NCBI GenBank assembly: GCA_035389045.1
Contig: DAOORA010000032.1
Span: 1-47,697 of the forward strand
Direction: 5' to 3'
DNA length: 47,697 nt
Source: Bacteroidales bacterium
Lineage (GTDB): Bacteria; Bacteroidota; Bacteroidia; Bacteroidales; CAIWKO01
The notes under the pieces are model-generated. The model had not been told where the DNA came from, did not search any database, and saw only the letters and a list, made by a program, of their open reading frames with translations. Position numbers and translations under genes: made by a program. Shown in pieces: positions 21,162 through 23,965 of this stretch; the stretch's first letter is position 1; every line of letters starts with the position of its first letter.

Positions 21162-22043
21162 GTGAATATTGTAATTATTTATGCTGTTATTACACTCAGC
21201 GTCATCGGGTTGCTGGCTGCAGTGATATTATTTTTCATTGCTCAGAAATTTAAAGTTATTGAAGACCCACGCATTGATGAAGTGGCTGCCTTGCTGCCCG
21301 GTGCCAACTGCGGTGGTTGCGGTTTTGCCGGATGCCGTAACCTTGCTGAAAATATTGTAAAAAAAGAATCCATTGACGGATACTTCTGTCCTCCCGGCGG
21401 TAATGCCACCATGAACACCATTGCTACTGTTTTTGGCCAGGTAGCTGAGGAAAAAGCCCCCAAAATAGCTGTGGTAAGATGCAATGGTACTAAAACCAAT
21501 GCGAAAGACAAAACGGTTTATGACGGACTTAATTCATGCTATTTTATACATAGTTTATATTCTGGTACAAATGGTTGCCCATACGGATGCTTAGGCGGAG
21601 GTGATTGCGTTGAATCCTGCCAGTTTGATGCCATGTATATGGACAAAGAAACAGGATTACCTGTAATTATTCAGGACAAATGCATAGCCTGCGGCGCCTG
21701 CGTGAAAGCTTGTCCCAGAGGAATTATTGAGCTTAGAAACAAAGGCAAGAAAGACCGCCGGATTTTTGTCAGTTGCATCAACAAAGAAAAAGGTGCGGTG
21801 GCAAAGAAAAACTGCGAAGTGGCATGCATTGGCTGCGGCAAATGTGTTAAGGAATGTAAATTTGAAGCCATCACTATGGAAAACAACCTTGCCTACATCA
21901 ACTTTGAGAAATGCACACTGTGCCGCAAATGTGTGGAATCATGTCCTACCGGCGCTATTTGGGAGGTGAATTTCCCGGAACGTAAAAAGAAAGAAGCAGA
22001 TGCTCCTGCCGCGGAAGTTGCGACTAATAAAAATGGAGGATAA
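21162..22043 (+). CDS. rnfB: Rnf electron transport complex subunit B (polyferredoxin)
   Basis: N-terminal TM helix, LPGANCGGCG.AGC and several CxxCxxCxxxC ferredoxin motifs. Confidence 0.95.
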   Translation: MNIVIIYAVITLSVIGLLAAVILFFIAQKFKVIEDPRIDEVAALLPGANCGGCGFAGCRNLAENIVKKESIDGYFCPPGGNATMNTIATVFGQVAEEKAPKIAVVRCNGTKTNAKDKTVYDGLNSCYFIHSLYSGTNGCPYGCLGGGDCVESCQFDAMYMDKETGLPVIIQDKCIACGACVKACPRGIIELRNKGKKDRRIFVSCINKEKGAVAKKNCEVACIGCGKCVKECKFEAITMENNLAYINFEKCTLCRKCVESCPTGAIWEVNFPERKKKEADAPAAEVATNKNGG

Positions 22044-22116
22044 AATGTTCAATATACAATGTTCAATATACAATGTTCAAAAAACAATATTCCATGAACA
22101 ATGTTCAATTGTTAAT
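22044..22116 (+). repeat. Left 7-bp-period degenerate tandem array (consensus AATNNNC)
   Basis: AATGTTC AATATAC AATGTTC AATATAC AATGTTC AAAAAAC AATATTC CATGAAC AATGTTC AATTGTT AAT, starting on the first base after the rnfB stop. Confidence 0.9.
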
Positions 22117-22146
22117 TGGGGGGAGGGGAGATAAAATTTTTTAATT

Positions 22147-22512
22147 ATGCAAACAAAATTTGATTTAGAAGACCGGTTGGTGGATTTTACTTGCAGAATG
22201 ATTGATATTGTTGAGGCATTACCAAGCACAAAAGCAGGAATTTACCTTGCAGGTCAGTTAATCAGAGCTTGTCATTCACCTGCTTTAAATTATGTAGAGA
22301 CTCAAGCGGCGGAATCCAAAGCCGATTTCATTCATAAACTGGGAATTGTTCTTAAAGAATTGAAAGAATGCAGAGTCATTTTAAAAATAGTTAAAAAAAA
22401 GGAAATTTTAAAGCCGGTTGGTCAACTATCAGAAATTTATAATGAAACGGAGGAGTTAATCGCAATTATTGGAAAAAGTATTAATACAGCAAAAAAGAAT
22501 AACAGTAAATAA
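22147..22512 (+). CDS. Four-helix-bundle protein (23S rRNA IVP / TIGR02436 / Avd-like family)
   Basis: DLEDRL..F, QLIR...SPALNY.E.Q.AES..DFIHKL.I.LKELKE, E.EELIAI...SI.TA. Confidence 0.9.
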   Translation: MQTKFDLEDRLVDFTCRMIDIVEALPSTKAGIYLAGQLIRACHSPALNYVETQAAESKADFIHKLGIVLKELKECRVILKIVKKKEILKPVGQLSEIYNETEELIAIIGKSINTAKKNNSK

Positions 22513-22545
22513 ATATTTTATCAGGTAATATATACGCCACTTCAG

Positions 22546-22609
22546 ATTAAAAATTGAAAATTGATAGTTGAGAATTGATTGTTGAGCATTGAAAATTGAA
22601 AATTATAAA
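22546..22609 (-). repeat. Right 7-bp-period degenerate tandem array, inverted relative to the left array
   Basis: + strand TTAAAAA TTGAAAA TTGATAG TTGAGAA TTGATTG TTGAGCA TTGAAAA TTGAAAA TTATAAA. The reverse complement reads AATTTTC AATTTTC AATGCTC AACAATC AATTCTC AACTATC AATTTTC AATTTTT AAT. Confidence 0.88.
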
Positions 22610-22636
22610 AAATAAAATATAAAGGAGGATTCATAT

Positions 22637-23965
22637 TTGAAAACTTTTAAAATAGGTGGTGTTCACCCGGAAGAAAACAAGATTTCTGCCGGTGCTGCAA
22701 TAAAAAGCCTGGCACTTCCGAAGACAGTTGTTATTCCGCTTTCCCAGAGTTTGGGAGCGCCCTCGGTTCCCGTTGTAAACAAAGGCGACAAGGTGCTCAC
22801 CGGGCAGCTCATAGCCCAGGGCAATTCGTTTATTTCTTCCAATATCCATTCGCCGGTATCGGGTACCGTGTCTAAAATTGACGACATGATGGATGCCAGC
22901 GGATACCGGCGCAAAGCCATTATCATCGATGCGGAAGGCGATGAATGGGTTGACACCATTGATAGAAGCCCGGAAATAAAGCCGGAGATGGCTCTTAGCA
23001 GGGAGGAAATCATTGCCAGGATAAAAAATGCCGGCATAGTTGGCCTGGGCGGAGCCACCTTTCCCACCCACGTAAAACTGATGGTCCCCGCAGGTAAAAA
23101 AGCAGAGTGCTTGATTATCAATGCTGTAGAATGTGAGCCTTACCTTACTTCCGACCACCGCATTATGCTGGAAAAAGGTGAAGAAGTGATGATAGGGATA
23201 AAAATTCTGATGAAAGCTCTCGCAGTTGACAAAGCGTATGTCGGTATCGAGAACAATAAGCCCGATGCCGTCGCACATCTGTCGAAACTGGCTGAAAAGC
23301 ACAAGGGGATAGAGGTGGCAGCTCTCAAGGTTAAATATCCGCAAGGCGGTGAAAAACAACTTATCAAGGCGCTTATTAACCGGGAGGTGCCTTCGGGAAA
23401 ACTTCCTATAGAGGTGGGTTGTGTGGTTCAGAATGTAGGGACGGCTTTTGCGGTGTATGAAGCCGTTCAGAAAAACAAACCCCTGATTGAACGCGTGGTA
23501 ACTGTTACGGGCAAAGCTGTGACAAACCCTTCAAATTTCATGGTTAGGATCGGCACACCTGTTTCGGCACTGCTCGAAGAAGCCGGCGGAATGCCCGGGA
23601 ACACGGGTAAGATCATCAACGGCGGCCCTATGATGGGTAAAGCCGTGAACTCCACGGAGATACCTGTTGTGAAAGGTATGTCGGGCCTGGTGCTGATGCC
23701 CGGAAATGAAGCCAGACGCATGACAGTGTCTAATTGCATCCGTTGTGCCAAATGCGTGAGCGCCTGCCCCATGGGTCTGGCTCCATACCTGATTGCACAA
23801 ACTTCAGAGATAGGAAAAGAAGAAATGGCCGAAGATTTAAGGGTTCTCGACTGCATCGAATGCGGTTCCTGCAGTTTTACCTGCCCCTCAGGTCGGCCAC
23901 TGCTGGAAAATATCCGCATGGCAAAAACTAAAGTAGGACAAATTATCAGATCACGAGCAAAATAA
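22637..23965 (+). CDS. rnfC: Rnf complex subunit C (NADH/FMN-binding)
   Basis: GGVHP, GIVGLGGATFPT, INAVECEPYLT.D, KYPQGGEKQLI, GGPMMG and two 4Fe-4S motifs. TTG start after AAAGGAGG. Confidence 0.96.
   Translation: MKTFKIGGVHPEENKISAGAAIKSLALPKTVVIPLSQSLGAPSVPVVNKGDKVLTGQLIAQGNSFISSNIHSPVSGTVSKIDDMMDASGYRRKAIIIDAEGDEWVDTIDRSPEIKPEMALSREEIIARIKNAGIVGLGGATFPTHVKLMVPAGKKAECLIINAVECEPYLTSDHRIMLEKGEEVMIGIKILMKALAVDKAYVGIENNKPDAVAHLSKLAEKHKGIEVAALKVKYPQGGEKQLIKALINREVPSGKLPIEVGCVVQNVGTAFAVYEAVQKNKPLIERVVTVTGKAVTNPSNFMVRIGTPVSALLEEAGGMPGNTGKIINGGPMMGKAVNSTEIPVVKGMSGLVLMPGNEARRMTVSNCIRCAKCVSACPMGLAPYLIAQTSEIGKEEMAEDLRVLDCIECGSCSFTCPSGRPLLENIRMAKTKVGQIIRSRAK

Follow-up and report, generated by a model that had tools for sequence, protein, structure and literature searches.

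The rnfB-rnfC locus

The present study deals with a 121-aa four-helix-bundle protein gene located between rnfB and rnfC of a Bacteroidales bacterium (GenBank assembly GCA_035389045.1), together with the two arrays of short tandem repeats that flank it. The window analyzed is the whole contig DAOORA010000032.1 (47,697 nt). In it, as the original prediction had described for positions 22044-22609, rnfB is followed by a heptamer array, the 121-aa gene, an inverted heptamer array and rnfC (Table 1). Gene and arrays constitute a discrete cassette that has been laterally exchanged as a unit and whose relatives at other junctions carry the same arrays.

The 121-aa product matches TIGR02436 (77.6 bits; cut-off 24) and PF05635 (46.8 bits; cut-off 33.8). 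The latter is its sole Pfam match at E ≤ 0.001, and the Y1 transposase family of repetitive extragenic palindrome (REP)-associated tyrosine transposases (RAYTs) is not among its matches. Chain A of 2RLD, a solved four-helix-bundle structure, matches residues 7-118 of the 121 (E 7.8e-10); this structure entry has five chains, and the protein Xcc0516 has been reported to be a pentamer (cited in the available text of PMC4990558). No rRNA or other Rfam match was found at the cassette locus, the insertion site being rnfB|rnfC and not a 23S rRNA helix.

Tandem Repeats Finder calls a period of 7 on both sides of the gene: 9.4 copies of AATGTTC at 22044-22109 (where a period of 14 is also called) and 8.4 copies of ATTGAAA at 22546-22604. 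The arms 22055-22116 and 22546-22607, of 62 nt, are 76% complementary, and the reverse complement of the right array falls into the CAATNNT register of the left one. The four-unit CAATNNN pattern CAATNNNCAATNNNCAATNNNCAAT, with at most one mismatch, has seven matches in the window, all of them within the two arrays (five on the + strand in the left array, two on the - strand in the right array), while 0.01 are expected from 100 shuffles. Both arms end inward in a TAAT-type unit, as had been predicted: TAATTGG on the left and, in reverse complement, TAATCTG on the right. With these arms, their cofold (see below) and the period-7 arrays, the cassette has both the complementary ends and the 5' tandem heptamers of those 23S intervening sequences that bear an open reading frame (ORF).

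Table 1. Features at the rnfB-rnfC junction, in window coordinates
Feature	Positions	Strand	Description
rnfB	21162-22043	+	Fer4 and FeS domains, from the ORF list; upstream host gene
Left period-7 array	22044-22116	+	~10 heptamers, consensus CAAT(G/T)(T/A)T, register AATNNNC, final unit TAAT
Spacer	22117-22146	+	Purine run GGGGGGAGGGGAG ahead of the ATG; not alignable among related cassettes
121-aa four-helix-bundle protein gene (TIGR02436/PF05635, alias S23p)	22147-22512	+	Profile matches; pN 0.14 versus pS 0.64-0.72
Degenerate GC-rich palindrome	22531-22548	+	Version in the congener G010: AATCCGCCACTTCGGATT
Right period-7 array	22546-22607	-	~8-9 heptamers, ATTGAAA/GTTGAGA on the + strand
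rnfC	22637-23965	+	TTG start; RnfC_N and Complex1_51K domains; downstream host gene
Tract near-identical to G010	~22030 to ~22680		Pairwise alignment and mismatch list; laterally exchanged unit

Junction states in relatives and lateral exchange

RnfB was searched for in 30 relatives of this genome (G000) and found in 17 of them, i.e., seven congeners and ten members of other families. At 15 of these 17 loci rnfC is also present, and all 15 junctions are short (15-238 nt), that of the cassette-bearing G010 excepted; at the two other loci rnfC was not found with the query used, and one of the contigs concerned (G013) ends ~80 nt past rnfB. Among the congeners, the following states can be differentiated: (i) filled junctions, G010 being the only one of the seven matched that has the same cassette at rnfB-rnfC; (ii) arrays-only junctions of 110-166 nt (G001, G002 and G016), which contain both array types and a GC-rich palindrome (TCCGCCAC..CGGA) without the gene; and (iii) empty junctions (G008 and G014), with array-free spacers of 52 and 36 nt. 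In other families nine junctions could be read, all of them short and without arrays. The gene is, in consequence of these mixed states, not vertically fixed at rnfB-rnfC. The empty junctions that the original prediction proposed to look for in relatives do exist, and its statement that rnfB and rnfC are normally adjacent agrees with all relatives whose junction could be read.

Comparison of G000 with G010 reveals 98-100% identity per 100 nt in the cassette core (22221-22520) and 93% in 22121-22220, versus 60-87% per 100 nt in the DNA of rnfB and rnfC. The near-identical tract (~650 nt) contains ~14 substitutions and indels of 28, 6 and 14 nt, and the 210 nt on either side of it are 78% (left) and ~68% (right) identical. 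Since this small island is bounded on both sides by diverged orthologous sequence, an assembly chimera is ruled out, and the cassette has recently been exchanged laterally. The arrays of the two genomes differ in length by 28 nt on the left and 14 nt on the right, both multiples of 7. A candidate target-site duplication, GGAGGAT, present on both sides in G000 and G010, was dropped because it is found neither at other sites nor in G002 and G016. Mixed junction states and a near-identical tract within diverged flanks amount to the sporadic distribution that is indicative of horizontal transfer. The proposal of a self-contained, possibly mobile cassette is, hence, well supported by the junction states, the G010 tract and the occurrence of the same arrays at other operon junctions.

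Related cassettes, selection and array units

A DNA search of 23 family-level genomes retrieved genes of 71-76% identity at other sites: a sufS-like|sufE-like junction in G016, G002 and G010, a different junction in G014 and, in addition, one truncated copy. All these homologs have left-hand units of CAATNNN type and right-hand units of ATTGANN type. Related copies differ at a proportion of 0.64-0.85 of synonymous sites (pS) and 0.13-0.19 of nonsynonymous sites (pN), with dN/dS of 0.06-0.11 where computable; given this difference between pS and pN, the 121-aa protein is under purifying selection and its synonymous sites are near saturation. The consensus CAAT(G/T)(T/A)T holds for the left and right arms of six cassettes alike, with 49 units on each side; the choice of register conditioned unit positions 1-3 but not position 4, which is T in 80-86% of units. 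Spacers between array and ATG cannot be aligned between related cassettes, though the unit core is kept. The units are thus heterogeneous, yet their core is conserved at three genomic sites. As to the asserted difference between the arrays and a slippage microsatellite, the persistence of this core across loci with saturated synonymous sites speaks for it, whereas the copy-number shifts of 28 and 14 nt speak against it.

Other subfamilies have other units. The octamer-flanked copy on contig C49 has its only close homologs (65-66%) in G491 and G513, members of two other genera, and both are flanked by YCTAANAG octamers, while homologs of 46-49% identity carry heptamers. A scan of 121 genomes of the order for triples of CCTAACAG (≤2 mismatches) gave 88 hits in this genome, 3 in G491 and none in the others. 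In another genus, units of GGAGTNR type accompany a 61% homolog of the GTTGGGA-flanked gene that occupies the same position next to serA. At the level of sequence, these comparisons demonstrate that array unit and period track the protein subfamily.

A further homolog (69% protein identity), with array hairpins of TTGA type, occurs on a viral contig (L100, IMG/VR, 1250-2211), ~1 kb from a major head protein gene; after it, a ~120-nt higher-order repeat made up of a YTTGAAN array, a loop and the inverted array is present in three or more copies. Given this position on a viral contig, a phage vector for the cassette is possible.

Family architecture in this genome and in the phylum

There are nine TIGR02436 matches in this genome. 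Short-period arrays flank six of these copies on both sides, with a unit that differs from copy to copy (CCTAACAG, GTTCGGA, AGCCAAT, GTTGGGA, CAATGTT and GATTTGA, respectively); the remaining ones comprise an interrupted copy with weak octamers and two copies without arrays. One array-less member, C45:11901-12221, is longer (147 aa) and lies downstream of a serA-like gene; L095-L099 are related loci. Its orthologs are kept at the same place in five other genera (43-44% identity), and this type appears to represent a form of the TIGR02436 family that lacks arrays and has become fixed.

Of 401 genomes sampled from the phylum, 322 have a match to the family, with more than 1800 matches in total. 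A set of 44 cassettes was compiled from the 30 best-scoring loci of different genomes and 14 loci from this genome and its relatives, and arrays were accepted when Tandem Repeats Finder called a period of 6-9, or a doubled one of 14, 16 or 21, within 170 nt of the gene. Arrays were thus found on the left of 28 cassettes, on the right of 26 and on both sides of 18; the remainder of the same loci yielded 44 array hits in 100.8 kb, which by our own arithmetic represents a roughly eight-fold excess at the flanks. Local alignment of the left flank with the reverse-complemented right flank scored above the 95th percentile of permuted pairs in 23 of the 44 cassettes and above the 99th in seven. Alignment scores were used instead of RNAduplex energies of 120-nt flanks, which proved too noisy (11/44 below the 5th percentile of permuted pairs). 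Both neighbors lie on the strand of the gene in 35 of the 39 cassettes for which both were called.

Short-period arrays are abundant in this genome: 59 strong arrays of period 6-9 were detected, compared with two of period 2-5 and five of period 10-13 (examples are C84:16113-16391, C59:1-283, C45:9871-10405 and C7:52481-52645). Twenty-one of the 59 touch contig ends, and arrays at contig ends probably cause many assembly breaks. Nine adjoin the nine family genes, where ~0.16 would be expected by our own arithmetic from the ~0.27% of the genome that the intervals around these genes cover. None of the 29 interior solo arrays has an inverted partner within 1.2 kb (scores ≤12), whereas eight of the nine gene-adjacent arrays score 14-31; because no interior solo array has such a partner, inverted bracketing is specific to family genes in this genome. 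Interior solo arrays are mostly located a few to ~40 nt from the stop codon of the upstream gene. According to single-linkage clustering, which is permissive, the largest unit families are GGGAGTC-like (20 arrays) and CCTAACAG-like (12 arrays), each of which includes arrays around one four-helix-bundle gene. No solo CAATNNT arrays were found elsewhere in the genome: the five other hits to three consecutive CAATNNN units are four of AGCCAAT/CAATAGC type and one isolated triple on contig C8.

Other phyla and 23S rRNA inserts

A tblastn search of plasmids with a typical family member returned 37 records, mostly from Cyanobacteria. Twelve loci were chosen for taxonomic spread before their flanks were seen, the cross-phylum sampling consisting of these plasmid records; hosts include Calothrix, Stanieria, Gemmatirosa and Riemerella. 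An array of period 7-8 adjoins the gene in 12 of 12 loci and is inverted in eight. In a Nostoc edaphicum plasmid, the family gene lies between nrd genes. Three loci (L068, L069 and L072) are insertions into cas operons with flanking heptamer arrays: between cas6 and cas4 in Anabaena sp. 90 and Pseudanabaena galeata, and between cas10 and cmr3 in Picosynechococcus PCC 7003. Finally, in plasmid AZO_p2 of Azospirillum lipoferum the gene lies inside a large-subunit rRNA gene (Rfam, 500.8 bits), where it is flanked by inverted CAGAGGA/CGGATGA arrays. The same design is, therefore, present in at least four phyla: Bacteroidota, Cyanobacteriota, Gemmatimonadota and Pseudomonadota. Since inverted heptamer arrays are also present in the Azospirillum rRNA insert, 23S inserts of the classic, ORF-bearing kind and the operon cassettes are, to judge from their layout, one architecture.

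The Leptospira 23S insert is an ORF-bearing intervening sequence as well. Its protein, like those of the Azospirillum lipoferum AZO_p2 insert and of the insert in helix 45 of Coxiella burnetii, belongs to the same family as that of the rnf cassette. According to the available text of PMC4990558, the Coxiella insert has three tandem GACAGAT heptamers before the S23p ORF, in a copy number that varies among strains, and is excised by RNase III, the 5' cut falling at the start of the first repeat (Warrier et al.); its protein is apparently not made and the ORF is decaying, while the RNA is still processed. The 23S inserts resemble the rnf cassette in that (i) an ORF lies between inverted ends, with 5' tandem heptamers varying in number; and (ii) they occur sporadically, with horizontal transfer inferred. 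They differ from it in four respects: the rnf cassette resides in the spacer of a protein-coding operon; its arrays are longer (~9-10 units per arm); its ORF is under purifying selection, whereas that of Coxiella is reported as decaying and untranslated; and RNase III cleavage is experimental for Coxiella (PMC4990558, available text) but only predicted for the rnf cassette. The suggested kinship of the 121-aa protein to the 23S rRNA intervening-sequence protein is thus upheld, both by family membership and by the architecture common to the Azospirillum and Coxiella inserts. In addition, a figure legend in the accessible part of PMC10910872 places a "23S rRNA IVP" family among CRISPR-linked domains; the cas-operon insertions described above may explain why the family is listed as "CRISPR-associated" in large screens.

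Pairing and expression

When 22030-22640 is folded, the two arrays pair with each other in both the minimum free energy and the centroid structures. Energetically, only the arm-to-arm cofold is informative; it reaches -34.8 kcal/mol, versus -21.7 +/- 3.0 for shuffled arms (z -4.4; 0 of 200 shuffles as stable), and the antisense arms cofold nearly as well (z -4.2). Because pairing lacks strand bias, an RNA-only function is not indicated. A gene for RNase III is present in the genome.

Three activated-sludge metatranscriptome runs hold contigs that are exact to the locus, one of them within the gene (22227-22367). The contigs of all three runs begin at 22664-22671, just inside rnfC, without loose ends; this shared start might mark the end of an RNA, reflect a branching of strains in the assembly graph or be due to chance. 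A fourth RNA run gave short pieces at 90-95% likeness, which come from other organisms. The Bacteroidota -7 promoter motif had no match in 22000-22700 upon inspection by eye only.

Proposed mechanism and alternatives

The explanation that we prefer is that of an intervening-sequence-type cassette in the rnf operon whose arrays form a stem cut by RNase III; taken as a whole, it is given an even chance of being correct. Under this explanation, the element would belong to a widespread class of compact cassettes, each consisting of a promoterless S23p/TIGR02436 gene with inverted arrays (7-8-nt units) on its two sides, occupying the spacer between two co-directional genes and built like the ORF-bearing 23S intervening sequences. 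It would be transcribed as part of the rnf mRNA, both arrays would pair into a long imperfect stem, and RNase III would cut this stem as it does in the Coxiella 23S insert. Cleavage would release the cassette RNA and part rnfB from the rnfCDGEA message, and the encoded protein would target the arrays of its own cassette, as RNA or DNA, and thereby serve the maintenance, processing or spread of the element. That the cassette is transcribed together with rnf and its array stem then cleaved by RNase III is the most likely course of events because of the Coxiella experiment, the predicted stem and the strong co-orientation of cassettes with their neighbors.

Several observations weigh against this explanation. 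The whole 611-nt fold is no more stable than its shuffles (z -0.24), gene-less array alleles show no significant folding (z -0.8 to -1.7), and sense pairing is more stable than antisense pairing in only 23 of the 44 cassettes (Wilcoxon p 0.42), a lack of strand bias that a DNA-level or protein-binding role fits equally well. Flanks are direct rather than inverted in four of the 44 cassettes and in two of the 12 plasmid loci, and one cyanobacterial copy, that between the nrd genes of Nostoc edaphicum, is antisense to its host operon; a simple excision stem accommodates neither the direct flanks nor the antisense copy. Arrays are lacking in two of the nine members in this genome and in all five other-genus orthologs of the C45:11901 type. 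The 44 cassettes are not independent, several being same-site orthologs, and the 30 phylum loci among them are the best hidden Markov model scorers and not a random sample. No contig of the three metatranscriptome runs bridges or ends in an array, contigs being in any case unable to show RNA ends or levels, and no transposase, integrase or clear target duplication was found with the cassette. Pairing is not the whole story, since the unit is conserved and subfamily-specific, strand bias is absent and some members have direct flanks; the unit sequence seems to be recognized by some factor, for which the encoded protein is the most economical candidate.

The arrays might instead serve chiefly as periodic sites that the oligomeric four-helix-bundle protein binds in a sequence-specific manner, in DNA or in RNA and without RNA excision, the protein acting as an autoregulator, an operon tuner or a mobility/maintenance factor. 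This possibility is somewhat doubtful, and it is compatible with the explanation preferred here. The related protein Avd, the accessory protein of diversity-generating retroelements, binds nucleic acid. Binding sites would account for the fact that unit and period track the subfamily past synonymous saturation, with the CAAT core at three genomic sites and YCTAANAG octamers beside the 65-66% homologs in three genera, while array-adjacent spacers are not conserved. They would also suit pairing without strand bias, the existence of direct-repeat flanks, the inclusion of arrays around one four-helix-bundle gene in each of the two largest dispersed array families, and the homology with Avd (described in the available text of PMC10053308). 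Nevertheless, these sites are putative and derive from the co-variation of unit and subfamily, which co-inheritance of one cassette predicts just as well; furthermore, solo arrays with the CAATNNT unit are missing from the rest of the genome, and in Coxiella the RNA is still processed though the protein is apparently not made (available text of PMC4990558).

It is unlikely that the inverted arrays are recombination or transposition ends acting at the DNA level, like REP sequences around RAYT genes or the attC sites of integrons. Such ends could form a hairpin or cruciform in single-stranded DNA, or be multi-site ends bound by a trans factor, with gene-less arrays as non-autonomous derivatives. 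No recombinase is encoded in or beside the cassette, no clear target-site duplication was seen, the family copies of this genome are only 16-33% identical to the rnf copy, which implies no recent burst, and its solo arrays have no inverted partner (0/29). On the other side stand the strand-symmetric complementarity, the exchangeable unit with limits just outside the arrays, the gene-less array alleles at the same rnfB-rnfC site, the many solo arrays with the unit families of two gene-flanking arrays, and the 70 convergent pairs reported among 186 heptamer arrays of Xanthomonas campestris (Rehm et al., available text of PMC4692102); but ordinary homologous recombination can explain the exchange between G000 and G010. 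As for a merely incidental association, in which slippage-prone 7-8-nt microsatellites happen to flank a vertically inherited small gene, it is very improbable. Most of the 59 strong period 6-9 arrays are indeed not beside a four-helix-bundle gene, and G000 and G010 differ in copy number by multiples of 7. Nonetheless, nine arrays lie at family genes where ~0.16 are expected, inverted partners occur in this genome only there, the same design is found in Cyanobacteriota, Gemmatimonadota and Pseudomonadota, and the arrays accompany the gene to other sites while the gene is not vertically fixed at rnfB-rnfC. Junction states, arrays that move with the gene, gene-specific inverted partners and the plasmid loci largely refute it.

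Relation to known systems and significance

REP/RAYT systems (REPINs) consist of a small gene flanked by inverted short repeats of a clade-specific type, with many dispersed gene-less repeats. The rnf cassette is alike in that it has a small gene with inverted flanking repeats, a clade-specific unit and dispersed gene-less repeats. Unlike those systems, its gene belongs to no recognized nuclease or transposase family, its repeats are tandem arrays and not single palindromes, and the solo arrays of this genome are unpaired.

The short tandemly repeated repetitive (STRR) sequences of cyanobacteria are made up of tandem 7-nt units. Tandem, intergenic 7-nt arrays have also been described in Xanthomonas (GGGAATC), Nostoc (GGGGAYT) and Beggiatoaceae, Cyanobacteria and Bacteroidetes (TAACTGA) and, like the arrays studied here, they lie near the 3' end of the upstream gene, mostly between co-directional genes (available text of PMC4692102 and PMC4679880). 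The accessible text of these two papers links no array to a four-helix-bundle gene: "helix bundle" appears in neither, "S23" nowhere in the former and "23S" nowhere in the latter. Avd, in turn, has a homologous four-helix-bundle fold and matches PF05635 (available text of PMC10053308). Unlike in the Avd setting, no reverse transcriptase (PF00078) was found in the whole 96.3%-complete genome with its nine family copies; the neighbors are rnfB and rnfC, and no template/variable repeat pair is present.

Members of the family move within a defined cassette bounded by inverted 7-8-nt arrays, which lands in operons as well as in rRNA genes. To our knowledge, all that has been said so far of the function of S23p/TIGR02436 proteins is that they are "found in 23S rRNA inserts" and "related to Avd". 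No description of the general gene-plus-array architecture or of operon-located cassettes was found in the literature, of which subscription journals were largely uncovered, so that absence is not proven. The model offered here is a concrete one, combining RNase III processing of the operon mRNA with recognition of the arrays by a cognate protein. The cassettes might also help to explain why intergenic heptamer repeats are, as has long been noted, in excess in certain groups of bacteria. Tentatively, and with considerable doubt, S23p proteins could be seen as sequence-specific partners of short-period arrays, the cassettes as the autonomous form of a widespread element, and the dispersed arrays as its derivatives or targets. 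If true, this element would colonize transcribed spacers of many kinds (rRNA helices and cas, rnf, suf, nrd and other operons), and the dispersed heptamer/octamer arrays of Bacteroidota, Cyanobacteria (STRR) and Xanthomonas would be gene-less derivatives or trans targets. It would represent a REP/RAYT-like partnership built on a protein without a known catalytic family.

Other features of the junction and dispersed palindromes

The left array was predicted to start on the base after the rnfB stop codon, which is the case in this genome but not in G010 and G001, where the stop lies 12 nt earlier; for this reason, the abutment is incidental. The C-terminus of RnfB (22029-22043) is four codons longer here than in those two congeners, whose TAA is AAA in this genome, and the next stop of the extended rnfB is the TAA that abuts the left array. 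Upstream of rnfC, the native AAAGGAGG region is kept. A 29-codon ORF (22046-22135) crosses the left array and a G-run, with GGAGGA five bases upstream of its ATG at 22046; this ATG is part of an AATGTTC unit and recurs in related cassettes.

The GC-rich palindrome TCCGCCA-N(2-5)-CGGA occurs 61 times in the genome, both strands counted (~40 loci), for example at C68:15190, C31:31157 and C16:32128, and some copies lie between or beside tandem arrays. One copy is situated 3' of the four-helix-bundle gene in G010, and in the gene-less rnfB-rnfC alleles the palindrome lies between the arrays. It looks like a separate REP-like element.

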